Below, in pieces: positions 1-34,299 of a DNA stretch of 43,028 nucleotides. A program made the translations under genes and the position numbers. Each line of letters begins with the position of its first letter. Positions within the stretch are counted from its first letter, which is position 1. The stretch covers positions 1 to 43,028 of the forward strand of contig JBHLLP010000029.1 in the NCBI GenBank assembly GCA_048885525.1. Direction: 5' to 3'. Source of the stretch: Candidatus Hermodarchaeota archaeon (lineage in GTDB: Archaea; Asgardarchaeota; Lokiarchaeia; Sigyniarchaeales; SOKP01). The notes below the pieces were generated by a model, which saw only the letters and a list, made by a program, of their open reading frames with translations, searched no databases and was not told where the DNA came from.

Positions 1-120
1 AAAATATCTTGGTGGTAAGTAAATATTAATATCTCTATCCACAGGACTGTTCAATGGATTGTTTTCCAATGATTTCGCATGAAAATTATCAATTCTATAT
101 CTTTCATTCGGGCTAAACAT
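1..120 (-). CDS. N-terminal part of a putative esterase (Fes/enterochelin-esterase-like alpha/beta hydrolase), runs off the window edge
   Basis: Not in the ORF track. Minus-strand frame from ATG at 120 reads MFSPNERYRIDNFHAKSLENNPLNSPVDRDINIYLPPRYF..., resembling the 'L..NPL..P..R...YLPP.Y' N-terminus of putative esterases. Open to position 1. Confidence 0.7.
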   Translation of the reverse strand, partial: MFSPNERYRIDNFHAKSLENNPLNSPVDRDINIYLPPRYF

Positions 121-15584: not shown

Positions 15585-18500
15585 TTATTTCAATATACGT
15601 ATTCTTTTCCATTTTTTAAGCATTATCACACAAATGCCTAATGCCGCTAATATTAAGAAAGATATGCTATATCCTGAGATCCTCCTCCCTGGTGATGGAA
15701 TAGCAACTGTAATCTTAACACAATTAGAAAGAGTTAAGCTAAAATCATTTTTAGCTACAGCAATGAAGTAATATATCCCATTCTGATACTCACTTAAAGG
15801 GAGTGCTTGTTCTGTAATCTCTTCTGCTAGGAGTGTTAAACTTCCATTAATTACAGTTATATAACTGGAATACTGATATACTGAATAACTTTTTGCTCCA
15901 ATCGATTCAGTCCAGGAGAGATTAAATGCACCATCATTATCATGTGGAGTATCTGCATCAGAACTTAAATCAAATGGTTGAGGTGGTTGTGCTATTTTTA
16001 CATTAACTTCTATACAGTTTGATTTTGTTTCACCATTATTATTATATGCAACTACAATAAAGTAATATTTTCCATCAGAGTATCCATCTAAGTGTAATTG
16101 AAGATCTTTCGTATCTTCTATTAGAATGGTTAGAGTTACATTAATTATCGTTATATAACTGGAATGTTCATAAACAGTATATGATAGAACCCCATGTGCT
16201 TCTGTCCACATTAAATCAAATATGCCATCATCATCAAAAGGTGAATTAGCATTTGTTATTAAATTAAAAGTGTCTGGAGGCTCATATGTTCCTGAAGAGT
16301 AAATTAAAATATCATCAATAAGCCAACCTCTATAATAATTATTTATTGAATCATACGTGTCAAAATGAAATTTCAATTGGATAACCATTCCAATATAAGC
16401 AGAAATATTCAATATTATTTTCTCCCATGGTTTAATGTACATAGAGTCGCTTTGATATAAAAGGTTCCAATCAATACCATTTGTTGAGATATAAACAAAT
16501 GATTCATCCCAACCAAATCCTTCAGCTTCTCTCCAATGATAGAATTCTAATGTAGCATCCATGTAACTAGATAAATTTATAGGAATGGAAGTAAAATTAC
16601 CCATTTCTCTGAAGCCTGTATCAAAAGTTCCTGTTGATTCATCACCAAACCACATCGAATGAGTTGGAGAATTATATGGATTGGACCATAAGCTACTATC
16701 ATCTGTTAAATGCCATAAACCTGTAATAGATTCCCAATTAGATAACCCGTTTTCAAAATCATCGAAAAACACTTCTATGCTAACAGTAATTAACTTGCTC
16801 TGAAAATTGTTAGAAATGTAAACTTCTCCTATTATTGGAGGAGTAAAAACTGTAAAATTATGGGTTGTATAGTTGAGGGGAGTCCAAGAATAAGTTATAC
16901 TTCTATTTTCACCTGAAGGTAAATTTGGAATCAATGTTGAGTTGATAATACTACCATCTAAATACAAAAATAAATCAATATTAGACTCATTATTCAACCC
17001 AAAATTAGTCACTGTTCCCTTAATTTGATAGGTTGTACCTACTTCACAGAAGGTTGGAACACCCATTGATACACTCAATTCATGATCAATATAGGTAAAA
17101 ACAATGTTAGATTCTACAAACTTACACGAATAGGTGCCTAATCCTCCCAAATAAAAAAATGTACCATGTAATAAGATTCCAGTATTTTTGTCATAATATG
17201 CTATCCCACCAGGAATACTCAAATCTTCTAATACCCATACTTGAACGGAACCATAACCAGGTAAAATATAATACGATTCTCCAGTAACCTCAAATAGATG
17301 ATTTCCTTCAGCATCAACTGCAATATATATCAGATCACCAATTGAAACTTCAGTAAAAATCCATATAGGTGTATAAGTTCCATTCCCAAATTGCCATCCA
17401 TCTCCTCCAGAATTTTCCATAATCCTTGTTTTAGCATTTACATCCCAAAACATATGAGATAAAGACCCATATTCATATACATACCAATCAACATTAAATA
17501 TAGGTCCTGAAATATGAGAATAGTTAACTTGTGATGGTTTTTCATAACCGAAAATGGTAAAAGTATAATTAATGTGCAAACCATCAAATAAGTGGATTTC
17601 ATGAATGGATATAATTTTAGTTGCGAAGTTGTTTGCTGTATAAAATTCACTCACTACTGGTGGACTATAACAAGAGAAATTATAGGTTCCATAATCAAGC
17701 GGAGTCCATGAATAGCTAATGGTCTCATTTTCACCAGAAAGTAAACTTGAAATTATAGTTGAGTTAACTGTGAGATTATCGAGATAAAGAAAAAAATCAA
17801 CATTAGATTCAGTAAAATTTCCATTATTAATAACTGTAGCATTAATGATATAAGTGTTATAAATATCCGGCATGCTTGGGACATCTAATATAACTTTTAA
17901 TTCATGATCTAATTCTTTAAAAAAGGTATCTGCATATCCCGGGGTATGTATAGGAACGCTCGGAGATTCAGGTGTAGTTTCTTCTAAAATCCCTGATACA
18001 TATCTTTCAATTTTGAATGAAGAGATAGTACCTATCAAATCCGAACTCCCTATGTCTAGAAAAAAGTTAACCTCATTATTTGCATCGTAATATGTTTGAA
18101 AGTCAGAAATATCTAAAGTCATAAATTCTGGAAGTAGATTAGCTCCATCAAATTCATAATAAGGAGTTTTCTCAGCTAATGGGGCATTGTGAGGGCCTAT
18201 TCCTAATGTAGTAAGATTAATCATTCGAGTAGGAGCAGGATCAAACTCCCAATTAGCAATTAAACTAGGAAGATAATCTATTCTATCCTCAATAACACAT
18301 AAATGAAGTAAAAAATCACCTAAAGCAAACCCAATTTCTTTTAAAGTTTCATATGTTAACCAATAATATCCATTATCTCCAAAGGATAAACCCCATGAAT
18401 TTACTACGCGAAATGCTCCTATATCTCCATCATCCGTTATGCTATCATCAAATCCAACAATGCATTGAGCATGGTTGTAACCAAGCGAGGTATACTCTGT

Positions 18501-19394
18501 AGATGATATTATATAATTACCATCTAAAAAACCAGCATCATATTCCCAAGCATCAAGAGCAAAAGTAACTGGAGACCCTCCTGAAATCATACTTTTAATG
18601 GCATCAATAGTAGAATCTGGATTTCCTTCATCAAAATCCATGAGATAATAATCATATGCTCTATGATAGGGGGCTTCTCTCCACGCTGTTTCGTTTCCCC
18701 AATTATCAACATCAGTATCATCGTATTGCATTGACGACATCGTTGCGCAACCCCAATCTACAAGTATTTGAGCATTGGTTGTCATCCAAGAACCATAATC
18801 TATAGGAGCTACTTTATTATAAGACCAAGCAGGACTCATTAAATAATCAGAATTACCGGATTTTGCATTCCATCCATAATCTTTTGCCTCTAAATATCCA
18901 TACGAATAATAAGTTGAAGCCCAAGCAGCGCAAGAACTTTGATACATTTGATCCCCAACAGCCGGAAACCAAATGTCAGCAGAAAGATCGTGAGTTCCTT
19001 TAGGTTTTTGATGTTCAGATTCTGATATTGCACTAATTATCGATAATTTACCGATAAGTTGCTCTAATTCTTCTTGTGTAGGTGGTGCTAAACCTGTACC
19101 ATGATCATCGATAATAATATTATAATTTTTTCCTTCTTCTCTTAGATCAATCTTTGATTTCATAAAATCTACTTCCTCTTGAGTTAAGTATTTAGCCAAA
19201 TACTCTTTGCCATTCATAGTGCATACAAAAGTTTCAGAGGGATAATATCTACTCAAATTGGCCTCAATTTCGCTATGCTCTGGTTGATCATTTATAACAA
19301 AGATAATACCAGAATTTGAAGTAGTTAAAAATGAAAAAAACAGGAGAAAGATAAAAAACCAAATAAAGATTGCTTTTTTGTTTAAAAATTTCAT
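15585..19394 (-). CDS. Cell-surface papain-like (C1) cysteine protease with 2 CARDB-like, one beta-sandwich and 2 FN3-like domains and a Loki-CTERM-type anchor
   Basis: Signal peptide; VGDQMYQSSCAAWA (Gln/Cys), NHAQCIVG (His), VVNSWG..FGDNGYYW (Asn); duplicated 'DHEL...N.G...ESN.D.FLYLD...SYSWTP' and 'PP..F.L...A..P.D.DG.F.L.WTE...YYFI.VA.N...SNC' modules; C-terminal ISGY-TM-basic tail. Confidence 0.88.
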   Translation of the reverse strand: MKFLNKKAIFIWFFIFLLFFSFLTTSNSGIIFVINDQPEHSEIEANLSRYYPSETFVCTMNGKEYLAKYLTQEEVDFMKSKIDLREEGKNYNIIIDDHGTGLAPPTQEELEQLIGKLSIISAISESEHQKPKGTHDLSADIWFPAVGDQMYQSSCAAWASTYYSYGYLEAKDYGWNAKSGNSDYLMSPAWSYNKVAPIDYGSWMTTNAQILVDWGCATMSSMQYDDTDVDNWGNETAWREAPYHRAYDYYLMDFDEGNPDSTIDAIKSMISGGSPVTFALDAWEYDAGFLDGNYIISSTEYTSLGYNHAQCIVGFDDSITDDGDIGAFRVVNSWGLSFGDNGYYWLTYETLKEIGFALGDFLLHLCVIEDRIDYLPSLIANWEFDPAPTRMINLTTLGIGPHNAPLAEKTPYYEFDGANLLPEFMTLDISDFQTYYDANNEVNFFLDIGSSDLIGTISSFKIERYVSGILEETTPESPSVPIHTPGYADTFFKELDHELKVILDVPSMPDIYNTYIINATVINNGNFTESNVDFFLYLDNLTVNSTIISSLLSGENETISYSWTPLDYGTYNFSCYSPPVVSEFYTANNFATKIISIHEIHLFDGLHINYTFTIFGYEKPSQVNYSHISGPIFNVDWYVYEYGSLSHMFWDVNAKTRIMENSGGDGWQFGNGTYTPIWIFTEVSIGDLIYIAVDAEGNHLFEVTGESYYILPGYGSVQVWVLEDLSIPGGIAYYDKNTGILLHGTFFYLGGLGTYSCKFVESNIVFTYIDHELSVSMGVPTFCEVGTTYQIKGTVTNFGLNNESNIDLFLYLDGSIINSTLIPNLPSGENRSITYSWTPLNYTTHNFTVFTPPIIGEVYISNNFQSKLITVSIEVFFDDFENGLSNWESITGLWHLTDDSSLWSNPYNSPTHSMWFGDESTGTFDTGFREMGNFTSIPINLSSYMDATLEFYHWREAEGFGWDESFVYISTNGIDWNLLYQSDSMYIKPWEKIILNISAYIGMVIQLKFHFDTYDSINNYYRGWLIDDILIYSSGTYEPPDTFNLITNANSPFDDDGIFDLMWTEAHGVLSYTVYEHSSYITIINVTLTILIEDTKDLQLHLDGYSDGKYYFIVVAYNNNGETKSNCIEVNVKIAQPPQPFDLSSDADTPHDNDGAFNLSWTESIGAKSYSVYQYSSYITVINGSLTLLAEEITEQALPLSEYQNGIYYFIAVAKNDFSLTLSNCVKITVAIPSPGRRISGYSISFLILAALGICVIMLKKWKRIRILK

Positions 19395-20707: not shown

Positions 20708-22024
20708 TTGTCTACATTAATGAAAGTTGCGAAGAACGGAAATACGACTAGAGACATGGAAATTGTCGCCAGAAATGAGCAGTTGGATGTGGAATTTATA
20801 AGGCGAGGAATCGAAAAAGGAAGGATAATTATACCTAAATCAAATGTAAGAGAATTAGATCCACCTATAGGTATTGGTAAGGGATTATTAGTTAAAATCA
20901 ACGCGAATGTTGGTTCTTCTAAAACTGTTTGTAATATTAATGAAGAGGTTGAAAAAGCTAAAATAGCTGTTAAATATGGTTCAGATACAGTTATGGATTT
21001 AAGCACAGGTAAAACTGAAACTGATATTCAAACAATTAGGAAGCAAATCATTAATGAACTTAAAGTTCCGATAGGAACTGTTCCTATTTATCAGACTGCT
21101 TTAAGAGCTATTGAGACTAAAGGTGCTATTATTCATATGGATGAAGATGATATGTTCAATGTTATAGAGGAACAAGCAAAAGAAGGTGTTGATTTCTTTA
21201 CCATACATGTGGGAGTTACAAAAGAAATTATAAATTACTTAGTTAAGCATCCACGAACAATGGGTGTCGTATCAAGAGGAGGAACATTTTTAGCATCTTG
21301 GATATTAGAACATGAAACGGAAAATCCATTTAATAGTAGATATGATTATTTACTTGAAATGGCCCAAGAATATGATTTCACATTATCTCTTGGAGATGGT
21401 TTGAGACCTGGGTGTATCTTTGATTCTACAGATTATGTTCAGATACAAGAGTTACTTGAAATTTCCAAATTAGTAAAGCGAGCATGGAAAGCAAATGTTC
21501 AAGTTATGGTTGAAGGGCCAGGACATATTCCTGCTGATGAAATTGAGAGAAATGTTAAATTACAAAAATCTCTTTGCGATGAAGCACCTTTTTATGTCTT
21601 AGGACCATTAGTTACCGATATAGCTCCAGGATATGATGATATTGTAAGTGCAATAGGAGGTACTATTGCAGGATTAGCAGGTGCTGATTATTTATGTTAC
21701 GTAACCCCCTCAGAACATCTGGGACTTCCTACAAAAGAAGAAGTCAGGAGAGGTGTAATTGCGTCTAAAATTGCTGCTCATGCTGTTAATATTGCCAAAT
21801 ACGGTAAAAGAGCTTCTAATTGGGATTATAAGATGGATATTGCTCGAAAAAACTTGGATTGGGAAAATATGATTCAACATTCAATCGATCCTGATTTGGC
21901 AAGAGAAGTTCACTATAGAAATGGAAATTCTATTGATAGTGAAGTTTGTAGTATGTGTGGAGAATTCTGTGCTATTAAACTATTAAAAGATACTTTAGAA
22001 AGTAAGAAGAAATCTAAAAAATAA
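20708..22024 (+). CDS. thiC: Phosphomethylpyrimidine synthase ThiC
   Basis: KINANVG.S, DTVMDLSTG, GTVPIYQ, GVDFFTIH, VSRGG, SLGDGLRPG, VEGPGH, PFYVLGPLVTDIAPGYD, LCYVTPSEHL.LP, CSMCGEFC. Confidence 0.97.
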   Translation: MSTLMKVAKNGNTTRDMEIVARNEQLDVEFIRRGIEKGRIIIPKSNVRELDPPIGIGKGLLVKINANVGSSKTVCNINEEVEKAKIAVKYGSDTVMDLSTGKTETDIQTIRKQIINELKVPIGTVPIYQTALRAIETKGAIIHMDEDDMFNVIEEQAKEGVDFFTIHVGVTKEIINYLVKHPRTMGVVSRGGTFLASWILEHETENPFNSRYDYLLEMAQEYDFTLSLGDGLRPGCIFDSTDYVQIQELLEISKLVKRAWKANVQVMVEGPGHIPADEIERNVKLQKSLCDEAPFYVLGPLVTDIAPGYDDIVSAIGGTIAGLAGADYLCYVTPSEHLGLPTKEEVRRGVIASKIAAHAVNIAKYGKRASNWDYKMDIARKNLDWENMIQHSIDPDLAREVHYRNGNSIDSEVCSMCGEFCAIKLLKDTLESKKKSKK

Positions 22025-22107: not shown

Positions 22108-22548
22108 TTATATTAGGTCTGTTGGTCTTGTTTTCCAAATTTTAATAGATTCAAAAATAAATACTGTTGTTCCAAAAATCAAAAAGAACAGTAATATTAT
22201 ACTACCTGGATTGCTAATAAAATTGTCACCATAAATACAAGCAAAAATTGTATAGACTATAAAACCTAGAACATTGACAATTAAGTATAATGAATATCGA
22301 GGTATCATCAAAAAACCGATACGGATATAAAAACCCAGCATTCCTTTTTTTAATTCTTCATTCACGTAATATTTTCCATCTTTATCATTTTTTGATATAA
22401 TTCCAGCATCTGATAATTTTTTTATTTGATAAGATACGGTTCCAGGAGACGAAATTTTCAATGACTTCTGAATTTCCCTTACTCCAGCACGCTTGTGAGT
22501 TAATATATACCAATAGATTTGAAGAGTTTTGCCTCTTAATACTTTTTC
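22108..22548 (-). repeat. Copy 1 of the duplicated wHTH-2TM module (copy 2 at 25051-25491)
   Basis: About 146 aa align without gaps; ~33 differences by hand count (~77% identity). Identical DNA stretches such as ttcaatgacttctgaatttcccttactccagcacg. Confidence 0.92.
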
Positions 22549-22677
22549 ATGGCTAATATTAATAACTTTTGTTTTAATGTCCGTTTTTGATATTACTTGC
22601 TTTGTTTCAATCTGATATATAGATTCTGGTTGTGTCTTTAGTCTTTCAAGTTTATGCTTTAATTTCTCAGGTGTCAT
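22108..22677 (-). CDS. Membrane-anchored winged-helix transcriptional regulator (wHTH + 2 C-terminal TM)
   Basis: LRGKTLQIYWYIL...GVREIQKSL.ISSPGTVSYQIKKL..AGII...DGKYYV (wHTH), then two hydrophobic helices. The start overlaps the upstream stop (ATGA, 22677-22674). Confidence 0.85.
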   Translation of the reverse strand: MTPEKLKHKLERLKTQPESIYQIETKQVISKTDIKTKVINISHEKVLRGKTLQIYWYILTHKRAGVREIQKSLKISSPGTVSYQIKKLSDAGIISKNDKDGKYYVNEELKKGMLGFYIRIGFLMIPRYSLYLIVNVLGFIVYTIFACIYGDNFISNPGSIILLFFLIFGTTVFIFESIKIWKTRPTDLI

Positions 22678-24803
22678 GATACATCATACTCTTCTTTGAT
22701 TTTTTTCATTAAATTACGATTTTTATTTAAAACCACACTTATTAAGACAATGATTGGCCCAATAATGATGAGGATAATTGGAAGATATCTAAACGTCAAT
22801 AATATTAAATTTATGTCACCGAGACGAAGAATTGCATTTCCTTTTAATTGAATTTCAGAAAAACGTAGATTAATATTTGAAGCGACAATTTCCAATTTGT
22901 TCCAGGACTGACTGCTATAATTCCATTGAAAAATTTCTTGTTCTTTAAGTCGAGTAGAAGAATGAATCTCATCTAAATCATAATAACACCTTATTTGATA
23001 TTCTAAATCAGAATTATTAACCTGAAGCTCATAAAACTTACCTGCTTCTTGTTGATTAGGAATAAGATTCTTAAATTGATGTGTCATTGTCATGTTCCAT
23101 TCAAGTTCGTGGTCTTGTAGGCTGACAAGACCATCTGTAAATGGAAAATAAATAGGTTCGGAAGACACTTCGATTTCTTCCATATTATAGATATCAATAT
23201 CTTGATTTTCAGGAAAATACTTAAAGATAAGTCGTCCAACCTTATCCATCTGAATAAAGGGGGCCACGTGAGTTGCTTTTAAGTAAGTCTTTTTTGTTTC
23301 TTGTAATAAAAGAAAGGGAGCCTCTTCCTGAGCAATATTTTGCACTTGAAAATAATAATACTCACGTTCTTGTTGAACAGGTGTTTGTTGACCTAAATCT
23401 GTATACATATCAATCTCAGCATTTGAATAACCACCGTAATTATCAGTCCCTGAAGTATGAAGAAGACTTCTGGAAACGCTAGGATCCGTTAACGGTAACC
23501 ACCCCAGGATAAAAAGATCAAAATCTCCTGCAAGAAGTTTCGATAATATTTCATCAAACGCACCAGTGACAATATAACAACGGATACCAACCAGATCGAG
23601 ATCTGCTTTAATTGCTTCTAATTCTTCATTACCCCATCCTACTAGTTCAATATCAAAACGATACCCATCACCAAGTCTGTGATATCCCGCATTATCTAAT
23701 ATGGTATTTGCAATATCAATATTATATGGATACCCTTGAATTGATTTATCATGATATGGATCTCCAGAATAAATTACGCTCCGAAGAGGGTTTACTCCTT
23801 CGTTTAAATTTGCATACTGATAATCGGTAAATTGTTGCTTATTGATAGCATAATTTATCGCTAATCTTACATTTTGATCATTTACAATTGGGCGGGAATG
23901 ATTGAAACATCCAATGCGCAGGCCATAAGGATTACCCAAAGACGCTTCCCAGTATGTATCACTTACCGGTAATAAATCCACTCGTATAGTGGTGAGATCT
24001 CCCTCGTGTGCTAGCACGGCAGCTTGAAAGTCCTCCTCAGAACTATATTTGAAATATTGGATTTCTTCAAAAGGTGGAACTCCACGAAAATGTTGTTCGT
24101 TTCGGATAAATTTCTGAAAAGTTTCATTACTAGCAATCACATCTAAATAATATGGTCCAGTTCCAATTGGTACAGTAATATTCGGACCCCCTCCAAAACT
24201 ATTTGGTGAAAAAATCCCAATCCACGGAGCTTCATAATATATAAAGGGAGCATAAGATTCATTAAAGTTAATAGACACTTTGAATTCTTCTAAAATTTCA
24301 ACAGACTCTAATGGCATATGGCTTAGGTCTGTCTGCGGAACAGCTACATAGGCTGGATGTGTAGGGTCAATAAATCGATCATAAGTGAACTTAACTGAGG
24401 ATGCGTTAAATTTTGTACCATCGTGGAATGTTACATCATCTCTGAGCGTAAAAATCCAGTGTTTACTATCATTTGTAACCACCCATTGCTTAGCTAATGC
24501 TGGCATAAGTTCTTCTGTATCAAATGAATATTCGACTAGGGGATCGTAAACAAACGAGGCTATATATGAAGGTGTACGAATAATATCATAATCAATCCCC
24601 CAATCAAAATAGGGAGGTGAAATGTATTTCAGTATTATAGGAGGGTCAAGATTAGCTGATGATTCGATCCCGTGAGAAATTACGTCTTCAGAATCTTGCT
24701 CTGAAAAGTTAGATTTCATCGAATTTATTGGGATAAATTGAATTGTGATTAAAAGAAGAAAGCAAATGGCAATAAAACGACGAGTTTTTAGCTTATCGTA
24801 CAT
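22674..24803 (-). CDS. Family 5 (Opp/Dpp-type) solute-binding protein with C-terminal TM anchor; no cognate permease or ATPase nearby
   Basis: VYDPLV...PALAKQW...WIFTLRDDVTFHDGTKFNASSVKFT, PIGTGPY, VRLAINYAINK, NYGGYSNAEID, ERE..Y..VQ....EEAP; N-terminal signal and C-terminal hydrophobic helix with basic tail. Confidence 0.9.
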   Translation of the reverse strand: MYDKLKTRRFIAICFLLLITIQFIPINSMKSNFSEQDSEDVISHGIESSANLDPPIILKYISPPYFDWGIDYDIIRTPSYIASFVYDPLVEYSFDTEELMPALAKQWVVTNDSKHWIFTLRDDVTFHDGTKFNASSVKFTYDRFIDPTHPAYVAVPQTDLSHMPLESVEILEEFKVSINFNESYAPFIYYEAPWIGIFSPNSFGGGPNITVPIGTGPYYLDVIASNETFQKFIRNEQHFRGVPPFEEIQYFKYSSEEDFQAAVLAHEGDLTTIRVDLLPVSDTYWEASLGNPYGLRIGCFNHSRPIVNDQNVRLAINYAINKQQFTDYQYANLNEGVNPLRSVIYSGDPYHDKSIQGYPYNIDIANTILDNAGYHRLGDGYRFDIELVGWGNEELEAIKADLDLVGIRCYIVTGAFDEILSKLLAGDFDLFILGWLPLTDPSVSRSLLHTSGTDNYGGYSNAEIDMYTDLGQQTPVQQEREYYYFQVQNIAQEEAPFLLLQETKKTYLKATHVAPFIQMDKVGRLIFKYFPENQDIDIYNMEEIEVSSEPIYFPFTDGLVSLQDHELEWNMTMTHQFKNLIPNQQEAGKFYELQVNNSDLEYQIRCYYDLDEIHSSTRLKEQEIFQWNYSSQSWNKLEIVASNINLRFSEIQLKGNAILRLGDINLILLTFRYLPIILIIIGPIIVLISVVLNKNRNLMKKIKEEYDVS

Positions 24804-24875
24804 TTTTTCTTTTTTAAAAATTTTAATGAAAAAATATTAGTTGTTAAATAATTCATTCATTTGCTATGTTATATA

Positions 24876-24912
24876 ACTATGTTTTGTACACTCTGTTCAA
24901 AATATCGTACAC
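24876..24912 (-). promoter_or_regulatory. 37-bp conserved upstream motif, copy 1 (three GT[A/T]CA boxes)
   Basis: actatgttttGTACActctGTTCAaaatatcGTACAc; 30/37 identical to 29902-29938; about 73 bp upstream of the SBP start. Confidence 0.7.
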
Positions 24913-25050
24913 TATTACTTTTATAGGATTATGGTTCACTTTAAGAAATTCAGACAATAAAGGAATAATATATTGAGATTTTTGTATGATAAAATTATTA
25001 AAAGATACTTTAGAACGTAAGATAAAGTTCATTTATTTCATATCTCATTT

Positions 25051-25491
25051 TTATTTTAACTTAGATGGTCTAGTTTTCCAAACTTTAATAGATTCATAAA
25101 TAAATATAGCAGTCCCAATAATCAAAAAAATTAGTAGAAGTAGACTCCCTGGATTGGTAATAAATCTGTCGCCGTAAATACTAGCAAACATTATATAGCC
25201 TATAAAGCCTAGAACATTGATTATTAAGTATAACGAGAAACGGGGTATCATAAGATAACCAATATGAATATAAAATCCTAATATCCCCCTTCTTAATTCC
25301 TTATTCACATAATACTTTCCATCTTTATCGTTTTTTGATATAATACCTGCCTTTAATAATTTATTTATTTGATATGATACGGTTCCTGGTGATGAAATAT
25401 TCAATGACTTCTGAATTTCCCTTACTCCAGCACGATGGTGAGTTAAAATATACCAATAAACTTGAAGAGTTGTACCTCGCAATAATTTTTC
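25051..25491 (-). repeat. Copy 2 of the duplicated wHTH-2TM module
   Basis: See copy 1 at 22108-22548. Confidence 0.92.
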
Positions 25492-27918
25492 TTGATTAAC
25501 GATAAGAGGTTTTTTTTTGATTTCAGTTTTTAATCTTATTTGTGTGAGTTCCTTATTGAATTTATAGCCTGATCGTATCTTTCCTATTCCCTTGTTTGGT
25601 TTCTCAGTTAGAATTATCGATAAAATAGATAGTGTACCAAGAGAAGTAAGAGATAGAATAAATATAATGCCAACTCTTGGATTTAATATATTTTCTGGTT
25701 CTATACAGCTGTTATCAGGTATTTCATAATAATCTGCATCCGTATTGTTCATAAATATATTCCCGTTTACAGTATTATAACAGGAAAGTTCTAGATATAT
25801 TCCAATCTCGTTGTTACTTACTATATTTCCCAAAATTGAGTTATAATTACTCATATTTAAACCAATGCCTATCCACATATTATTATTTGCGGTATTCCCT
25901 GAGATAGTGTTATTATCGCTATCTTGTAGGGCGATCCCCGCAAGAGTATTGTAGTTTGCGGTATTTCCTGAAATATTATTATTGGTACTATTAACTAAGC
26001 CTATACCAAGAATATCATTATTATTTGCGATATTTCCTGATATAGTGTTTCTATCACTATCTATTAAAACAATCGCTGCAAGATTATTATTTTTTCCAGA
26101 GTTAACAGAAATTAGGTTCCCGCTACTGTTTAGAATTAATATAATGCCAACATCATTATAGTCAACAATGTTTTCTGTAATATTAGTGTAATCACTGCTC
26201 GATATGAATATCCCATTATCACTAGTAGTCACAATGTTTTTTGAAACGATATTATTATCACCACGTATATCTATTCCATTACCAGTATAAGTGATAGTGT
26301 TTTCCGAAACAAAATTATTATTACCGTCAATAGCTATCCCTAAATATTCATTATCAATTGCTATATTTCTCGTAAAGCTATTATTTTCACTAGAATACAA
26401 ATAAATACCATGATCGTTGTTATATACGGTGTTTTCCGAGAAAACATTAGAATTACTAACAAATATATAGATACCATGATAGCTGTTATTTACGCTGTTT
26501 CCTGAGATATTATTATAATTACTGAAATATAAAGAAATACCATTATAGCTGTTATATATGCTGTTTCCTGAGACATTATTATAATTACTATCTACCAAGA
26601 TCCCATTATCTGTGTTATTGGTTATTGTGTTTTCGGAAACATGATTATTGTTACAATTTGATGATAATTCTATCCCATTATCGTTATAATTTGCAGTATT
26701 TCTTGAGAAAATATTATAATTACTAGAAACTAAATAAATACCGCGAGAGTTGTTATACACGGTGTTTCCTGAGAAATTATTATAATTACTATAACGTACA
26801 TTGATCCCGTTAAAACCGTTACTATGTGCGTTATTTTGGGATATAGTGCTATAATTACTCTCATATAAATGTATCCCATCAAATATATTATTGTTCACTG
26901 TGTTCTCTGTGATGTTGATATTATTGGAATAGTATAAATTAATTCCTGCAGAGCAGTAAGAAATATTCAAATTTGATATAATTGAATCACTACAATTAAC
27001 CAAAAAGACCTGTCCAGCATTAGTGAAATTGTTTGGGCTTAAACTGATTTCATTTGTATAGTAATATATAGGTTTTCCATTCACGAGATTAGTAGTATCG
27101 AAATTATATGAATTTAATTCTTCAAGTGAACCCTCTATGCCAAATCCCCCTTTATCCATTATATTTCCAGTAATGGTATAATTATTACCACCGTTAATGT
27201 CCATCCCGTAAGTATTATTATTTAAGTTATTTCCAGATAAAATATTATTATTACCACAGATCCTCATCACATAAAGATTGTTATTTAATGTATTCCCAGA
27301 AATGCTATTATTATCACCATATATATCCATTCCGAGAAAATCGTGGTTATTGAAAAAGTTACCTGTAATAGTGATATCTTGGCATCTCTGTATAAATATC
27401 CCGTAAATATTATTATTTACAATGTTTCCAGAAATAGTGTTATTGAAACAATTTTCTAAAAATATTCCACACCAATTAAATGAGCAATTATTATTGATTA
27501 ATCGAGAATTATTCACATACGATAATACAATTCCCCCTCCCCAAAAGGAATCCCAAAAAGAAATAAATATTGTATTATAGACAGTAATATTTTCAATCCT
27601 AAAATATACGCTAGAGTTTTCAATAAAGATACCATATGACATACTTTGGGCATCTATAATTAAATCCTCTATGACATATGGATCAGAGAAGTTGCCTGAA
27701 CCAGTTACTATGCCCACACTCTTCGCGTCCGTCCAATTATTATTAATATGAATGCTCCCTAAAATTTTTGAAATTTTTAAATTTCTGGTATCTAAATTAA
27801 TATCATTGCTTTTTTCGCGATTTCCAGTATTAAGCATGAAATTGTAATATATTTTTATTGAGAATGCGAAAATAATTCCAAAAGTTATTAAAATTATAAT
27901 TTTTGGTTTTGATTTCAT
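25051..27918 (-). CDS. NosD-like parallel beta-helix surface domain fused to TM + wHTH + 2 TM
   Basis: Signal/TM, TGSG...DPYVIEDLIID entry motif, many 22-23 aa 'GI.L..S..N.ISGN...NN' repeats, a TM (VGIIFILSLTSLGTLSILSIIL), then the same wHTH-2TM module as 22108..22677. Confidence 0.9.
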   Translation of the reverse strand: MKSKPKIIILITFGIIFAFSIKIYYNFMLNTGNREKSNDINLDTRNLKISKILGSIHINNNWTDAKSVGIVTGSGNFSDPYVIEDLIIDAQSMSYGIFIENSSVYFRIENITVYNTIFISFWDSFWGGGIVLSYVNNSRLINNNCSFNWCGIFLENCFNNTISGNIVNNNIYGIFIQRCQDITITGNFFNNHDFLGMDIYGDNNSISGNTLNNNLYVMRICGNNNILSGNNLNNNTYGMDINGGNNYTITGNIMDKGGFGIEGSLEELNSYNFDTTNLVNGKPIYYYTNEISLSPNNFTNAGQVFLVNCSDSIISNLNISYCSAGINLYYSNNINITENTVNNNIFDGIHLYESNYSTISQNNAHSNGFNGINVRYSNYNNFSGNTVYNNSRGIYLVSSNYNIFSRNTANYNDNGIELSSNCNNNHVSENTITNNTDNGILVDSNYNNVSGNSIYNSYNGISLYFSNYNNISGNSVNNSYHGIYIFVSNSNVFSENTVYNNDHGIYLYSSENNSFTRNIAIDNEYLGIAIDGNNNFVSENTITYTGNGIDIRGDNNIVSKNIVTTSDNGIFISSSDYTNITENIVDYNDVGIILILNSSGNLISVNSGKNNNLAAIVLIDSDRNTISGNIANNNDILGIGLVNSTNNNISGNTANYNTLAGIALQDSDNNTISGNTANNNMWIGIGLNMSNYNSILGNIVSNNEIGIYLELSCYNTVNGNIFMNNTDADYYEIPDNSCIEPENILNPRVGIIFILSLTSLGTLSILSIILTEKPNKGIGKIRSGYKFNKELTQIRLKTEIKKKPLIVNQEKLLRGTTLQVYWYILTHHRAGVREIQKSLNISSPGTVSYQINKLLKAGIISKNDKDGKYYVNKELRRGILGFYIHIGYLMIPRFSLYLIINVLGFIGYIMFASIYGDRFITNPGSLLLLIFLIIGTAIFIYESIKVWKTRPSKLK
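26471..26589. repeat. 66-bp-period tandem repeat inside the beta-helix gene
   Basis: ataccatgatagctgttatttacgctgtttcctgagatattattataattact (26471) versus ataccattatagctgttatatatgctgtttcctgagacattattataattact (26537). Looser copies near 26700-26790. Confidence 0.75.
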
Positions 27919-28343: not shown

Positions 28344-29813
28344 TCACGATTTTTTAATTTTTTTACTTATAATGACTACTACAATAGATAGAGTGCCAAT
28401 TAGAAAAAATATACTATATCCTGGAATTCCTTCCTCTTGTACTTTAATAAAAGGGGAATTAGATGGTCCTGAACTTCCAGCTACATTATTAGCAATAATG
28501 GCATAATACCAACTTCCTAATCCCGGTACAGTATCTGTAGTGCTGGTTCCTGTAATAGTTTTTATTTCTGTGGCCGAATTCAGATTACCAGAAGTAATTT
28601 CTGAGGTGTGGCGATAAAGCGTATAATTATCAGCACCACTAGACGCAGTCCATTGAAGTGATATATTATAACTTGTTGTTGGAGAAGATGTTGTTATTGT
28701 TAACGTTGGTGGGTCTGGCGGTATTATATTTTTTCTCTCCCAACTGTTAGTATTTACGTCGTATGCCCACGTCTTGCCTTGTATGTCATCAATAAGGGTA
28801 GAACCAGAATCCCAGGGACCAGTAGTACCACCATAGATTATGACTCTATCTGACTCTGAGTCATATGCAGCTGCATGACGACATCTAGCAGAAGGGCTTG
28901 TAGTGGGACTCATTTGATCCCAAGTATTGTTGTTATAATTATATAACCAAGTATCACCGTAAGTTGAAAACACAGTACCCCCACCAAAAAGCACAACCCT
29001 ATCGGATTCGCTGTCGTATGCCATTTTATGTTCTGATCGTTTTGAGGGATGGGTATTACTAGTCAGGTTTTCCCAAGTATCGCTGTTATAATCGTAAGCC
29101 CATGTCTCATCAAGGGAATCAAATCCTAAACCTGGACATCCTCCGAAAAGGATTATTCGGTCGCTCTCGCTATCATAAACCATATCATGATTGACTCGTG
29201 CCAAGGGAGATTGAACGGGGCTCATTTTTTGCCAAGTATTGCTCCCTGGATCATATGCCCAAGTTTCATTGAAAAAAATTGCCACAGGATATGGGAATTC
29301 CTCCATTCCTCCAAACAGGATAATCCTATCACTCTCTGAATCATACGCCATACTATGGGCCCTTCTTTCTGACGGAGCGCTAACTGGAAAAAGCTGAGTC
29401 CAAGTATCTGAATTGTAATCATAAGTCCAGGTATCATTACGCTCCCCCGAGACTGTCCAATTTTCCATGCCACCAAAAAGAACTATCTTATCCCTTAATG
29501 AATCATAGACCATACCCATTTCTGCTCTTCGACGGGGTGCCGGTGAAGGTGTTTTTTTAGTGTATGTGTCACTGTTGAAATCATATATCCATGTGTCTTG
29601 ATGTGATGGAGTTGTTGACATGTTCCATCCTCCGAATATGACGATTTTGTCTGATTGACTGTCGTATGCCATTCCAGGATTACCGCGAGTTGGAAGATCG
29701 GGTGAATCAGCCATAGCTCCTGGTGATATATTTATTAACACGATGAGAAGAATACTAGCTATTATGCCAGATATCATTAACTTATTCTTTCTGTAATTCT
29801 TATCTCTTTTCAT
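28344..29813 (-). CDS. Cell-surface Kelch-type beta-propeller protein with FN3-like domain and Loki-CTERM-type anchor
   Basis: Six ~50-aa repeats 'P..R..H.MAYDSESDRIILFGG...TW.YDYNS.TW', a signal peptide, an FN3-like module, and GIPGY-TM-KKIKKS. Confidence 0.9.
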   Translation of the reverse strand: MKRDKNYRKNKLMISGIIASILLIVLINISPGAMADSPDLPTRGNPGMAYDSQSDKIVIFGGWNMSTTPSHQDTWIYDFNSDTYTKKTPSPAPRRRAEMGMVYDSLRDKIVLFGGMENWTVSGERNDTWTYDYNSDTWTQLFPVSAPSERRAHSMAYDSESDRIILFGGMEEFPYPVAIFFNETWAYDPGSNTWQKMSPVQSPLARVNHDMVYDSESDRIILFGGCPGLGFDSLDETWAYDYNSDTWENLTSNTHPSKRSEHKMAYDSESDRVVLFGGGTVFSTYGDTWLYNYNNNTWDQMSPTTSPSARCRHAAAYDSESDRVIIYGGTTGPWDSGSTLIDDIQGKTWAYDVNTNSWERKNIIPPDPPTLTITTSSPTTSYNISLQWTASSGADNYTLYRHTSEITSGNLNSATEIKTITGTSTTDTVPGLGSWYYAIIANNVAGSSGPSNSPFIKVQEEGIPGYSIFFLIGTLSIVVVIISKKIKKS

Positions 29814-29901: not shown

Positions 29902-29938
29902 ACTATTTTTCGTACATACTGTTCAAAAAGTTGTACAC
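29902..29938 (-). promoter_or_regulatory. 37-bp conserved upstream motif, copy 2
   Basis: actatttttcGTACAtactGTTCAaaaagttGTACAc; about 89 bp upstream of the Kelch gene start, same orientation as copy 1. Confidence 0.7.
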
Positions 29939-30330: not shown

Positions 30331-31164
30331 ATGAAAAAAGTTTTAACAATAGCAGGTTCAGATTCAGGTGGGGGTGCCGGAATTCAAGCGGATTTAAAAA
30401 CTTTTTCTGCACGCGGAGTTTTTGGAATGAGTGCAATTACAGCACTTACAGCTCAAAATACCGTAGGTGTTCAAGGTATTTTTGAAGTTGATCATGAATT
30501 TGTTGCTAAACAAATCGATTCAGTAATGACCGATATAGGAGCTGATGCTTGGAAAACAGGTATGCTTTCAAATGCAGAAATAATACAAGTTGTGGCTGAT
30601 CGAGCATCTTTTTATAATGTTGAGCTCCTAATAGTTGATCCTGTAATGGTTGCAAAAAGTGGAGATCCATTATTAAAGGCTGAGGCAAACTATACTCTCA
30701 TCTCAAAGCTCATCCCGTTGGCTCATGTAATAACACCAAATCTTCACGAAGCCCATATTTTAACGGGAATTGAAATAAGTAATATAAATGAGGTTCAAGA
30801 ATCCGCGGTAAAAATCTTCGAGATGGGTGTTAAGAACGTGGTTGTAAAAGGAGGACATTTGAAAGATATTAATGAATCAATAGACATCCTTTATAATGGA
30901 AAAAAATTTATAGAATTTCGTTCTCCTCGCATTAATACAAACAACACACATGGAACGGGTTGTACATTTGCTTCAGGCATTGCAGCCGAGTTGGCTAAGG
31001 GAAAAGACATAATAAATGCTGTACATATCGCTAAAGCATATTTGACGAATGCCATTCAAAGAGCGGATGTTCTTAATATAGGTAAAGGTCATGGTCCGAC
31101 TGATCATTCACTGGGGAGTGAATTAAAAGTGAATCTTGATTTGGTTAGTGTTAGAGAAATTTAG
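30331..31164 (+). CDS. thiD: Hydroxymethylpyrimidine/phosphomethylpyrimidine kinase ThiD
   Basis: VLTIAGSDSGGGAGIQADLKT, TAQNT.GV, KTGML, VDPVMVAKSG, TPNLHEA, VKGGH, HGTGCT, GHGP. Confidence 0.97.
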   Translation: MKKVLTIAGSDSGGGAGIQADLKTFSARGVFGMSAITALTAQNTVGVQGIFEVDHEFVAKQIDSVMTDIGADAWKTGMLSNAEIIQVVADRASFYNVELLIVDPVMVAKSGDPLLKAEANYTLISKLIPLAHVITPNLHEAHILTGIEISNINEVQESAVKIFEMGVKNVVVKGGHLKDINESIDILYNGKKFIEFRSPRINTNNTHGTGCTFASGIAAELAKGKDIINAVHIAKAYLTNAIQRADVLNIGKGHGPTDHSLGSELKVNLDLVSVREI

Positions 31165-31745
31165 ATTTTGTTTTTCTTAATTAATTTAATAATTTGGTCT
31201 AGTTTGCTTATTATATCATTAGAATTTTTACCGAATAATCTCATCATTGGTTCTTTCCCAATTGCGCCTTTATCCCAGATTATATCGGGTATTTTCCCTT
31301 TTTTTTTTACACTCTCATTTATCAACCACTGCATTGTAGAATATTCTTTCTCTTTTACGCTCTCTGGTTGTTCTTCTCTAAGGATCTCCTGTAGTTCTAG
31401 ATTTGAGTTCTTCTCAATTGATTCAATTAATTCGGGAATATATCTTAGATTAATAACAAAATTAATTGAATTATCAAATTCTTTGGCAGTAAGAATTAGT
31501 CTAGCGGTATGATCAGATACTCCAAACTTAATTTCCCCTGAAGCTTTTGGGAAACCATTTATTATTGTAATGCGACCCTCAATTCCAGCTATATCACTTT
31601 TACTTTTTGCATTAGAGAGGGATCCAGAAATATTCATTCTTACTTCTGGTATTAATTTGCTGAAATTTTTGTTTTTAGATATTATACTATATACTTTCCT
31701 AATTTGATCAATTATATTCTTTTTTTCTTCAGATATTTGCGTCAT
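31161..31745 (-). CDS. thiN: Stand-alone ThiN-type thiamine-phosphate synthase domain
   Basis: LIPEVRMNI, IAGIEGRI, FGVSDHTAR, NLRY, R.EQP..VK.KE.STM.W, PDIIWDKG.IGKEPM.RLFG. Confidence 0.85.
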   Translation of the reverse strand: MTQISEEKKNIIDQIRKVYSIISKNKNFSKLIPEVRMNISGSLSNAKSKSDIAGIEGRITIINGFPKASGEIKFGVSDHTARLILTAKEFDNSINFVINLRYIPELIESIEKNSNLELQEILREEQPESVKEKEYSTMQWLINESVKKKGKIPDIIWDKGAIGKEPMMRLFGKNSNDIISKLDQIIKLIKKNKI

Positions 31746-31791: not shown

Positions 31792-32376
31792 TTATATGCC
31801 TTCTTTAATTCTGTCAAACGCCCATTTAGCTTTATCGTGAAGTCCAAGTCTTTCATATGCTTTTCCTAAATATAAAAAACCATTTGGATAATTATAACGT
31901 ATTTTAACTAACTTAAATAGAAAATTGATTGCTAAGTCGTATCGTCCTTTTAGATAGTTTGCTTTTCCTAAAAGATAAAGAATATTTAAATCTCTTTCAT
32001 CAGTAGAATTTTCATTATATAAGTCCAATAGCTTTTCTATTGCTTCATTATAACTTTCTTCTTCTATCAAATGTTCAATTGACTCAACAAATTTAAGGAA
32101 TAAAATCTTATCCGCAACTTCTTGCATTTTTTTTCTTGATTCTTCTTGTAATTCTTTTTCTAAAACAGCTTGTTTCTCTTGTTCTTTCTTGTCTTTATAA
32201 TCTTTAAATTGATCAATTAAACTTTGAGGGTATGGTTCACTACATAATGGACAATTATCTGAATGTAATAACCATTCAGCTATACATATTTTGTGAACAA
32301 GGTGTAAATTTTTACAAGCTTTAAAAGAATCTGTGTTCTCATTTATGTTTAAATGGCAAATTATACAAGAAGGCAT
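31792..32376 (-). CDS. RING-H2 finger + coiled coil + TPR protein (putative E3 ligase)
   Basis: C-x2-C...C-x3-H-x2-H-x2-C-x3-W...CPLC at the N-terminus; TPRs LYLLGKANYLKGRYDLAI and FLYLGKAYERLG. Confidence 0.88.
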   Translation of the reverse strand: MPSCIICHLNINENTDSFKACKNLHLVHKICIAEWLLHSDNCPLCSEPYPQSLIDQFKDYKDKKEQEKQAVLEKELQEESRKKMQEVADKILFLKFVESIEHLIEEESYNEAIEKLLDLYNENSTDERDLNILYLLGKANYLKGRYDLAINFLFKLVKIRYNYPNGFLYLGKAYERLGLHDKAKWAFDRIKEGI

Positions 32377-32564: not shown

Positions 32565-34151
32565 ATGACGATTAATAGGAATCAACTCTTTAATGAATTA
32601 TTCAATCAATTCTTAGAACTAAATGATGATGTAGAGGCTGTAATTGTAAGTGATAAACAAGGATTAGTTATTGCCGGTGAAAAAAGAAGCGATGTGGATA
32701 TGGAAATCGTTTCTGTTTTAACTTCTATAATAAATCCGATTGTTGAGAGAATTCGCGATGAGTTTATGTTTAAAAAGTTCGGTACTGCAAGTTTTGATAC
32801 AGAATTCTATAGACTTTTATTTATATCTTTAGATGAGAGTAGAACTCTTAGTGTTGTATTGAATAATTTAGCATCTATAGATAAAGCTAGTCCATATGCT
32901 TATCTTCTAGCTGAAAAATCAGTTCAAATTCTTAATGCTGAAGAGGGTGACAATATTCAACTTGCAATTCCTAATTTTGAATATGAAACTGATGAAGCAA
33001 CACATTATGAAAGGGTTAAGAATCAAATCTATCAAATGAGGTTAGATGAAGGAGGAAAATATAGGTTTAAATTTGTAATTATAGGAGATCATGAAGTAGG
33101 TAAAACATCATTGGTACGACGCTTTGTAGAGAATAAATTTTCTCATGATTATCGTGCTACCATAGGATTAAATATTTTATCTCATTCCATTGAATTTTTT
33201 GGAAATGAGATCATTTATAGTCTCTGGGACGTTGGAGCTCAAGTTTATTTCAAACGTTTCCGGCAAACTTATTATTTAGGTACACAAGCAGCATTTATTG
33301 TATTTGATTTAACAAAAAAAGAGTCATTTGAAAATGTGAAACAATGGTATGCTGAATTAGAAGAATTCATAGGTGGAAGGGAAATTCCTATTATAATTAT
33401 TGGAAACAAAACCGATTTAAAGGAACAAAGAGTAGTCACATATCAAGATGGTGTACAACTAGTTAGTGAATTATCCAAAAAGCTAAATTTTAAAATCTCT
33501 TATATTGAAACTAGTGCATTATCAGGAGAAAATGTTGAAGATGCCTTTACTTTAATAGCATTTCATTACATTTCTAAAAGTAAAGAAGAAGAGGAGGATG
33601 TTGTTAAGCAAGATCTTTTAGAAGAGCTTAACTCTATTATAATTAAAAGAAGACAAGAAGTAGAAGATCAAAGCTCTTTATTAACCTTAACGGTTATATC
33701 AGAAAATGAATTTTGGAGCCCAGGACTTCAAATTCTCTCAGAAATTAACGCACCATATGAATGTGAGAGAATTAGGGATGCGAGAGATGAAAAAGCCTAT
33801 AAATTTTCGAATGGGGTCATTATAAAGAATTATCTTTACAATAATTTTGATGTCTCTAATTCTGATGGAGTTTTCTGCATTTTTGATGCACGAGAAAAGG
33901 AACATATTATCCAAGATTGGAAAAATGTTGTTATTAGAATTATAAACGATATAGAAGAGAATAAAGTAGTATTGATAGGAATTAGAGTATCAGAAAAAAG
34001 CGATTGGTCTGTAATCATGGAAGATTTCAACGTAAATGAATTATTAGAACAGAAAATGGTATCGCTTTTATTCTTTAAAATAGGACTTGAATATAGGTTA
34101 GAAATTTATGATCAATTAAAGGTTATGTTAAATACTATTAAATATCTTTGA
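32565..34151 (+). CDS. Roadblock/LC7-like domain + Rab-like small GTPase + degenerate second G-domain (paralog 1)
   Basis: VEAVIVSDKQGLVIAG (Roadblock-like); G1 GDHEVGKTS, G2 YRATIG, G3 WDVGAQ, G4 GNKTD, G5 ETSAL; C-terminal SDGVFCIFDA...W...VVLIG. Confidence 0.9.
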   Translation: MTINRNQLFNELFNQFLELNDDVEAVIVSDKQGLVIAGEKRSDVDMEIVSVLTSIINPIVERIRDEFMFKKFGTASFDTEFYRLLFISLDESRTLSVVLNNLASIDKASPYAYLLAEKSVQILNAEEGDNIQLAIPNFEYETDEATHYERVKNQIYQMRLDEGGKYRFKFVIIGDHEVGKTSLVRRFVENKFSHDYRATIGLNILSHSIEFFGNEIIYSLWDVGAQVYFKRFRQTYYLGTQAAFIVFDLTKKESFENVKQWYAELEEFIGGREIPIIIIGNKTDLKEQRVVTYQDGVQLVSELSKKLNFKISYIETSALSGENVEDAFTLIAFHYISKSKEEEEDVVKQDLLEELNSIIIKRRQEVEDQSSLLTLTVISENEFWSPGLQILSEINAPYECERIRDARDEKAYKFSNGVIIKNYLYNNFDVSNSDGVFCIFDAREKEHIIQDWKNVVIRIINDIEENKVVLIGIRVSEKSDWSVIMEDFNVNELLEQKMVSLLFFKIGLEYRLEIYDQLKVMLNTIKYL

Positions 34152-34299
34152 TGCTTGCTAATAATTTATATCTTGAAATCGACTAATCAAAAAAATACTA
34201 TTTATAGTTAATAATCAATAATAATAAAAATCCAATTAATAATTATTAAGTAAGTAGGATAAGTTCATTTAAAAAGAATTTGTATTGAGAGAGACGTTC

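Follow-up and report, generated by a model that had tools for sequence, protein, structure and literature searches.

How do signals from outside the cell reach the genes of an Asgard archaeon? To our knowledge, almost nothing is known of this route, and the question is raised in a compact form by a locus of a Candidatus Hermodarchaeota archaeon (genome of 3.58 Mb, about 3000 proteins), in which the gene of a small membrane-bound regulator starts on the stop codon of a gene for a membrane-anchored solute-binding protein (SBP). The window, i.e., the whole stretch of DNA analyzed here, is the 43,028-nt contig JBHLLP010000029.1. The regulator combines a winged helix-turn-helix (wHTH) domain with two transmembrane segments (TMs), and a second copy of this wHTH+2TM module closes a 955-aa protein with a beta-helix in front of it (Table 1). 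A preliminary description made from the letters of the DNA had reported both modules, one free behind the SBP gene with overlapping ATG and TGA and one fused, and the open reading frames (ORFs), their coordinates and the similarity of the copies (76% identity over 148 aa by tblastn) were confirmed. It had further taken the fusion as a key to the pair, namely as evidence of a modular one-component receptor. We favor another reading, at a probability of roughly 0.55, in which partner and regulator would form a kinase-free, co-component-like sensor/activator pair that autoregulates a small regulon of surface-protein genes; judging by the family counts and the tree, the cassette system is mainly a two-gene one and not mainly one-component.

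The regulator, its partner and the shared tail

Of 400 Asgard genomes, 228 carry the module; relatives occur in Bathyarchaeota and Nitrososphaerota, and clustering at 50% identity gives 691 clusters. Free modules predominate (237 matches of 103-331 aa, nearly all free, vs. about six beta-helix fusions). In a tree of 114 modules over 145 columns, the coupled regulators form a clade set apart from the rest of the family (support 100/97), which spans the Loki and Hodarchaeales lineages at 43-55% identity. Within this clade, 71 of the 74 free two-TM members lie no more than 100 nt behind a same-strand gene with a C-terminal TM, as compared with 2 of the 41 family members outside it and, under a stricter filter, 7 of 2928 genes in the present genome. 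The anchored partner stands upstream of the regulator in all coupled loci, and stop and start codons overlap in 58 of the 71. In the window, the regulator's ATG lies on the partner's TGA (ATGA, 22674-22677), an overlap from which translational coupling is probable, and the two proteins would be made together. Two further paralogs, missed in the preliminary description together with the partner tail and the operator described below, are present on contigs C31 and C16: the former shows the same ATGA overlap with the stop of a separate beta-helix gene bearing a C-terminal TM, and the latter is distant and has no coupled anchored partner.

Table 1. Features of the regulator locus and of the neighboring candidate target (nucleotide positions refer to the window, residues to the protein named)
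Feature	Position	Strand	Details and basis
Free regulator, 189 aa	22108..22677	-	ORF list, hydropathy, Pfam, AlphaFold model
Regulator N-terminus, 40 aa			low-confidence in AlphaFold model
Regulator wHTH	residues about 43-105		AlphaFold model
Regulator beta-hairpin	residues 117-126		AlphaFold model
Regulator TM1	residues 127-149 (model); 123-141 (hydropathy)
Regulator TM2	residues 157-183 (model); 160-178 (hydropathy)
Partner gene, 709 aa	22674..24803	-	signal 10-28, SBP_bac_5 98-449, TM 674-692, tail
Conserved partner tail, about 38 residues	22674..22787	-	Y-x-P, about 20-residue TM, invariant Asn, basic stretch, acidic-hydrophobic end
TATA-like TTATATAA beside candidate operator 1	24869-24876	-
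Candidate operator 1	24876-24911	-	18-bp palindrome TGTWC-N8-GWACA at 24894-24911, third half-site at 24886-24890, then bases like a B recognition element (BRE)
Fusion, 955 aa	25051..27918	-	signal 3-21, NosD-type beta-helix, TMs 751-769, 889-907 and 926-944 (hydropathy)
Fusion wHTH+2TM module	25051-25500	-	duplicate of regulator
Fusion connecting TM	residues 751-769; 25612-25668	-	basic linker after it
Kelch beta-propeller surface protein	28344..29813	-	Loki-CTERM anchor, 23.6 bits (cut-off 19.9)
Candidate operator 2	29902-29937	-	layout as operator 1; 124 nt upstream of Kelch gene; score 41

The AlphaFold model of the regulator presents a wHTH fold with a predicted local distance difference test (pLDDT) value of about 90, and two long helices after a beta-hairpin. 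The modelled wHTH resembles the ArsR/MarR/MecI type in fold comparison and has LexA/ArsR-like neighbors in the Atlas; Foldseek returned generic wHTH matches alone (best E 0.003), and a PDB sequence search with the family profile gave zero matches, i.e., no solved relative. About 20 residues with only a short hairpin separate the wing from TM1, HAMP and sensory domains being absent, and the loop between the two TMs, on the outer side, comprises about 8 residues. Across 68 sequences the membrane part has invariant residues at three places, where a Pro-Arg pair precedes TM1, Gly-Asp lies in the outer loop and Glu-Ser closes TM2, and by this conservation the hairpin exceeds the needs of a mere anchor. 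Both the positive-inside rule and the N-glycosylation sequons of the fusion (29 in the 725-aa outer part vs. 1 in the 115-aa inner part) speak for a cytoplasmic wHTH, so we infer that the free protein is a membrane-tethered transcription factor. With a predicted DNA-binding domain and at least one predicted TM, it corresponds to what is called a transmembrane transcription regulator (TTR) (PMC10269533). The preliminary view of the module as a membrane-tethered wHTH regulator of Asgard archaea thus stood, given its distribution, the model and hydropathy. Of the outcomes that would have spoken against that view, an extracellular wHTH is at odds with the predicted topology, and the lack of associated ectodomain genes is at odds with the family search.

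The partner in the window carries an SBP_bac_5 domain (Pfam, E 4e-52) followed, at residues of about 525-670, by an extra domain with no assigned family; its single-sequence fold reached a pLDDT of 41, the TM-tail helix alone being confident, and an Atlas search with it gave nothing above 0.75. The SBP has the domain of an Opp/Dpp importer subunit but not the adjacent permease and ATPase genes, since no ATP-binding cassette (ABC) permease gene was found at the window locus or beside the SBP gene in related loci; BPD_transp_1 genes lie on other contigs, and the SBP may use a distant transporter. Across the coupled loci, the partners bear four unrelated ectodomain classes (SBP_bac_5, SBP_bac_1, NosD/beta-helix and SBBP propeller), and the same Y-x-P/TM/Asn/basic tail closes all four, in agreement with the earlier claim that ectodomains are interchangeable. 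A tail profile built from other genomes and searched against the about 3000 proteins matched just two, both coupled partners (E 7e-26 and 4e-16; next 0.008), and did not match the 955-aa fusion. Nor does the tail qualify as Loki-CTERM (NF033507, cut-off 19.9 bits), the window tail being unmatched and the C31 tail scoring 13.4 bits. Because the tail of the SBBP partner matches those of the beta-helix partners of sister regulators (63-68% identity, with 79-83% between the matching regulators), and because the beta-helix protein of L190 has an SBP-type tail, the tail by these comparisons follows the regulator and not the ectodomain. The ratio of nonsynonymous to synonymous substitutions (dN/dS; all values are rough pairwise estimates) is 0.30 in the cytoplasmic part of the tail and 0.07 in its last residues, with 0.42 in the adjoining ectodomain. 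A complex prediction of regulator and partner tail scored 0.13 against a mark of 0.32, and weighs neither for nor against binding.

The candidate operator and the proposed circuit

The palindrome GTWC-N8-GWAC was present in 34 of 52 partner promoters, vs. 0.3 in dinucleotide shuffles. A spacer of 8 is strongly preferred, the motif stands before all four ectodomain types in Loki and Hodarchaeales loci, and in Loki the palindrome is accompanied by a third half-site and a BRE/TATA-like block. When a position weight matrix built without the sites of this genome was scanned over the 3.58 Mb, three sites stood out, with scores of 42 (before the SBP gene), 41 (before the Kelch gene) and 34 (contig C7), the next being 14 and the shuffled maximum 9.5; all three precede genes for secreted proteins. 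The Kelch gene is therefore a candidate target of the regulator. The third site (C7:77730-78825; L185:3731-4826) precedes a gene whose secreted 334-aa product has no match in Pfam, this gene being a candidate remote target. The upstream spacer of the 955-aa fusion in the window holds no operator. The distances from operator to TATA-like box fall into groups at 17-20, 30 and 39-42 nt, which by a crude pattern match differ by about whole turns of the helix, and the archaeal activator TFB-RF1 binds upstream of its promoter at such a phased position (PMC5937170). The exact operator pattern occurs in 12 of the 20 genomes with a close regulator vs. 6 of 114 others. In five operator-holding genomes the regulator was sought and not found; four of these sites lie on contigs of 3.7-6.9 kb that end downstream, one of them right after a tail-bearing gene, and the fifth looks like chance. 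What pairs regulator and operator is co-occurrence, from which DNA binding is presumed.

Taken together, these observations suggest the following circuit. A regulator dimer would very probably bind TGTWC-N8-GWACA upstream of BRE/TATA, and would probably act as an activator of its own operon and of a few surface-protein genes. The partner encoded upstream would contribute the outer domain together with the conserved TM and tail, and conservation and linkage lean toward a tail that packs on the membrane hairpin of the regulator. Whether a ligand on the ectodomain would alter this contact, and with it the dimer state or stability of the regulator, we regard as evenly balanced. The two-gene SBP cassettes are basal in the tree and beta-helix and SBBP propeller partners are limited to one Loki branch, consistent with an SBP as the ancestral input for which the other ectodomains may have been swapped in later, the tail staying with the regulator; Hodarchaeales genomes hold up to several paralogous SBP cassettes each, in which the SBP is an orphan. 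More broadly, and more tentatively, Lokiarchaeia and Hodarchaeales might share a plug-in receptor system, in which any ectodomain that gains the tail of roughly 38 residues becomes the ligand sensor of a dedicated membrane-tethered activator. Such a sensor would signal through contacts between helices inside the membrane; no kinase and no outer domain of the regulator would take part, and the system would be unrelated by homology to the bacterial co-component systems.

The fusion and the alternative readings

The beta-helix of the fusion is well supported (NosD/Beta_helix, Pfam E<1e-58), and its module and the free one share 73% identity over an alignment of 165 aa and 81% over one of 499 nt. 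A modular one-component receptor family, in which such a fusion is the working unit and the split pair its dissociated form, would find favor in the order and topology shared by both, in the persistence of an intact fusion in six assemblies including this one, in the strong selection on its wHTH and hairpin (dN/dS 0.11-0.14) and in one fused gene (L196) with its own operator. The fused modules, however, form one clade (93/89) nested beside SBP5-coupled regulators and away from the beta-helix-coupled branch, and in the five assemblies with context the fusion always stands at the same locus, directly upstream of the operator, an intact SBP5 gene and the free regulator. Its connecting TM has no partner tail and is under relaxed constraint (dN/dS 0.62), and where the fusion stands in this genome, others have either an unfused duplicate of the regulator or a separate beta-helix gene with an IPGY-like anchor (L004, L037 and L040). 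By the tree and the locus, the fusion is a single derived event, a late local side branch, most simply explained by a tandem duplication of the regulator, one copy of which was then joined to a neighboring anchored beta-helix surface gene. By eye, the junction resembles the IPGY-type anchors of ordinary surface proteins. Two other ideas about the fusion were tried and rejected: as a Loki-CTERM its TM stays below the cut-off of 19.9 bits (window TM unmatched; TM of the P0122 fusion 8.3 bits), and an origin by read-through of a tail-type beta-helix cassette conflicts with the tree and the missing tail. Since it is single, derived and devoid of the tail, the fusion makes a weak Rosetta stone, from which the working of the split pair cannot be read, contrary to the preliminary argument. 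A putative input domain and an output domain in one chain are found in the fusion alone, the large majority of the family having no such layout; the one-component model is thus largely refuted as a general one and very improbable, and it is doubtful that the fusion itself works as a one-chain receptor. The suspicion of an artefact, either a frameshift at 22674-22677 that split one gene or a chimeric fusion, as a metagenome assembly might invite, is refuted by recurrence and has practically no probability left: of the 71 coupled, non-identical loci, 51 have the -4 (ATGA-type) overlap and 6 an overlap of -1, and fusion and gene order are repeated in five other assemblies.

The remaining alternatives accept the two-gene cassette and dispute what the tail does. 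It may be that the tail merely stabilizes, anchors or protects the regulator, the ectodomain being surface cargo and the hairpin reading the state of the membrane or envelope. Such a structural cofactor would explain why 4-TM members function with no ectodomain at all, and it has documented counterparts among the associated proteins of bacterial TTRs, for instance TcpH and ToxS, which keep their partners from being proteolyzed (PMC10269533); furthermore, four unrelated folds on one tail, with beta-helices varying from about 370 to 830 aa, fit poorly with one mechanical coupling. We nevertheless consider it unlikely, because an orphan SBP, whose fold is a ligand-binding one, is retained by the basal members, with as many as several paralogous cassettes in a Hodarchaeales genome, and because SBP5 and beta-helix also make up the outer part of a receptor-like TM-TIR protein of this genome. 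A plain autoregulated operon, with the regulator as the last gene among its own targets and the tail as a lineage-specific sorting or anchoring signal that happens to be linked to it, is improbable as well. It has a precedent in pf1089/tfb-rf1 (PMC5937170), the operator stands alike before the partner and before unrelated surface genes, and linkage by itself would account for the shared history of tail and regulator. Yet a sorting signal should be found on many proteins, as is the IPGY-type end on 19 in this genome, whereas the tail is found on two, each directly before a regulator; operator-bearing targets elsewhere have ordinary anchors, and the neighbor gene of the regulator bears the tail whatever its ectodomain.

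Several points weigh against the sensor/activator pair that we prefer. The wHTH of the regulator falls under every Pfam cut-off (HTH_24 E 2e-4; HTH matches E 2e-4 to 2e-3), and the TM of the tail is weakly constrained (dN/dS 0.56). The histories of tail and regulator correlate at r = 0.92, yet the two genes adjoin on the DNA, and a shared history is therefore expected by linkage alone. L190 (3378-4487) combines an operator with a beta-helix gene of SBP-type tail and has no regulator gene behind it, which may reflect action in trans or a remnant. The count of operator-holding genomes is partly circular, the pattern being derived partly from genomes that were then counted, and a reversed control pattern matched in 26 of 135 genomes. 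The loci are heavily related, with many near-identical Loki beta-helix cassettes, and the coupling counts therefore overstate independence. Three free clade members have no directly coupled partner, and neither does most of the wider family (Thor-type, Bathyarchaeota, Nitrososphaerota and other Hodarchaeales paralogs).

Variant forms, neighboring genes and known systems

Clade members with extra TMs of their own (the 4-TM and C-extended classes) have a coupled partner in none of 11 cases. The 4-TM class (about 250-262 aa; an N-terminal TM pair, the wHTH and two TMs) is monophyletic (L021, L023, L025, L027, L029, L031 and L036), and several of its genes are divergent from ABC permease genes; the idea that its N-terminal TM pair is a captured partner tail was not supported, generic hydrophobic scores being all that was obtained. 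In forms of about 350 aa, the C-terminus of the regulator is joined to a multi-TM domain (listed at L010:8019-9077, L012:8019-9077, L040:2934-3491 and L007:8804-9361), similar to a free 185-aa membrane protein that lies downstream or behind an operator at other loci; this is a second fusion with a neighboring gene. Truncated regulator copies of 86-104 aa on the partner stop in L008 (7644-8564), L052 and L094, with the full copy next in L008 and L052, are a small tandem duplication at the junction. A separate paralog group (L151-L154, L168, L183 and L184) follows a secreted 730-750 aa gene (DUF3160 in L151) with no C-terminal TM. The C16 paralog (L002:7373-7885) lies directly before the gene of a 2008-aa membrane-anchored alpha-2-macroglobulin (L002:8009-14035; both genes together C16:45372-52034), and its orthologues in L157-L163 precede a long secreted gene, probably also an alpha-2-macroglobulin. 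P0126 (548 aa), a distant module, is extended at its C-terminus by a long stretch that closes with a further TM and is perhaps an outer domain after a third TM.

The cassette is part of a surface-gene islet between thiC and thiD/thiN-like genes (window 20708-22024 and 30331-31745), whose flanks stay and whose content differs in every relative; in related genomes, most of its surface genes have their own operator. Beyond the islet, the window contains a 1269-aa secreted papain-like (C1) protease with CARDB repeats and a C-terminal anchor (15585-19394, reverse strand), with no operator upstream, a RING plus TPR protein (31792-32376, reverse strand) and tandem proteins of 528 and 524 aa, each with a Ras-family GTPase domain in the center and regions on either side of it (32565-34151 and 34285-35859, forward strand); the RING plus TPR gene and the tandem GTPase genes are conserved beside the islet in relatives. 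Elsewhere in the genome, a protein of at least 1643 aa (C54:2-4933, forward strand; L200), its 5' end cut by the contig edge, comprises SBP_bac_5, a NosD beta-helix, a TM (1215-1233) and a cytoplasmic region with a C-terminal TIR_2 domain (E 1.5e-13), i.e., a receptor-like ectodomain-TM-TIR layout with the same two outer domains.

The cassette offers a complete, small and testable circuit, with a 189-aa regulator, an 18-bp operator at three sites in the genome, named targets and a candidate docking tail of 38 residues, and work on it in vitro or in a model archaeon would not require the source organism in culture. If the tail docks, it would be a prokaryotic example of receptors diversifying by the exchange of ectodomains on a constant membrane adaptor. 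The system is present in Hodarchaeales, for which a close relationship to eukaryotes has been proposed; we found no connection to the receptors of eukaryotes and claim none.

The preliminary description knew of no account of this architecture, and we likewise found none in the literature on the architecture, Loki-CTERM and Asgard TTRs (subscription journals lying mostly outside the coverage), so that the cassette is apparently undescribed. Its closest bacterial parallels are the co-component systems VtrA/VtrC, ToxR/ToxS and TcpP/TcpH (PMC9214523; PMC10269533), which likewise join a membrane-tethered wHTH regulator to a membrane-anchored extracytoplasmic partner with no kinase, encoded by adjacent, often overlapping genes, as 71 of the 74 free clade members are coupled and 58 overlap. 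Three defining features of the VtrA/VtrC superfamily nevertheless differ, and the cassette is therefore not a member: the bacterial partner gene lies downstream of the regulator and the Asgard one upstream; the bacterial regulator has an HTH, one TM and a periplasmic VtrA/ToxR domain, whereas the Asgard regulator has two TMs and no outer domain; and the bacterial partner has a lipocalin-like fold, whereas the Asgard partner is a type I protein with SBP5, SBP1, NosD or SBBP. Unlike in the bacterial pairs, with which there is no homology, any contact between Asgard partner and regulator must lie in or under the membrane.

Among archaea, ArnR/ArnR1 of Sulfolobus acidocaldarius is similar in its N-terminal HTH and two C-terminal TMs; it binds inverted repeats and activates surface-structure genes (PMC6396743). 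It has, however, HAMP and sensory domains where the Asgard regulator has a short hairpin alone, no coupled ectodomain partner is described for it, and its box, TCGAC-N5-GTCGA, differs from the Asgard operator. The likeness to TFB-RF1 (PF1088)/pf1089 of Pyrococcus furiosus is in layout: the regulator lies downstream of a membrane-protein gene in one operon, a palindrome is found upstream of BRE/TATA at a conserved distance, the regulator activates its own operon and the regulon is very small. The paper, however, mentions no membrane anchor for TFB-RF1, PF1089 has four TMs and lacks a large ectodomain, and the motif is TCTGAANTTCAGA (PMC5937170). The 955-aa fusion recalls one-component TTRs such as CadC (PMC10269533; PMC9214523) in having outer domain, TM and cytoplasmic wHTH in one chain, though in reverse order, with the ectodomain N-terminal and two more TMs after the wHTH, and as a rare and derived form. 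Finally, a precedent for SBP input is provided by CBP-ChiS of Vibrio cholerae, in which an SBP activates a membrane-bound DNA-binding regulator, probably via direct contact (PMC11856585); CBP is not anchored but free in the periplasm, and ChiS, a hybrid sensor kinase of large size, has a periplasmic domain of its own, whereas in the Asgard cassette the SBP is itself anchored and the regulator is a small protein with no kinase.

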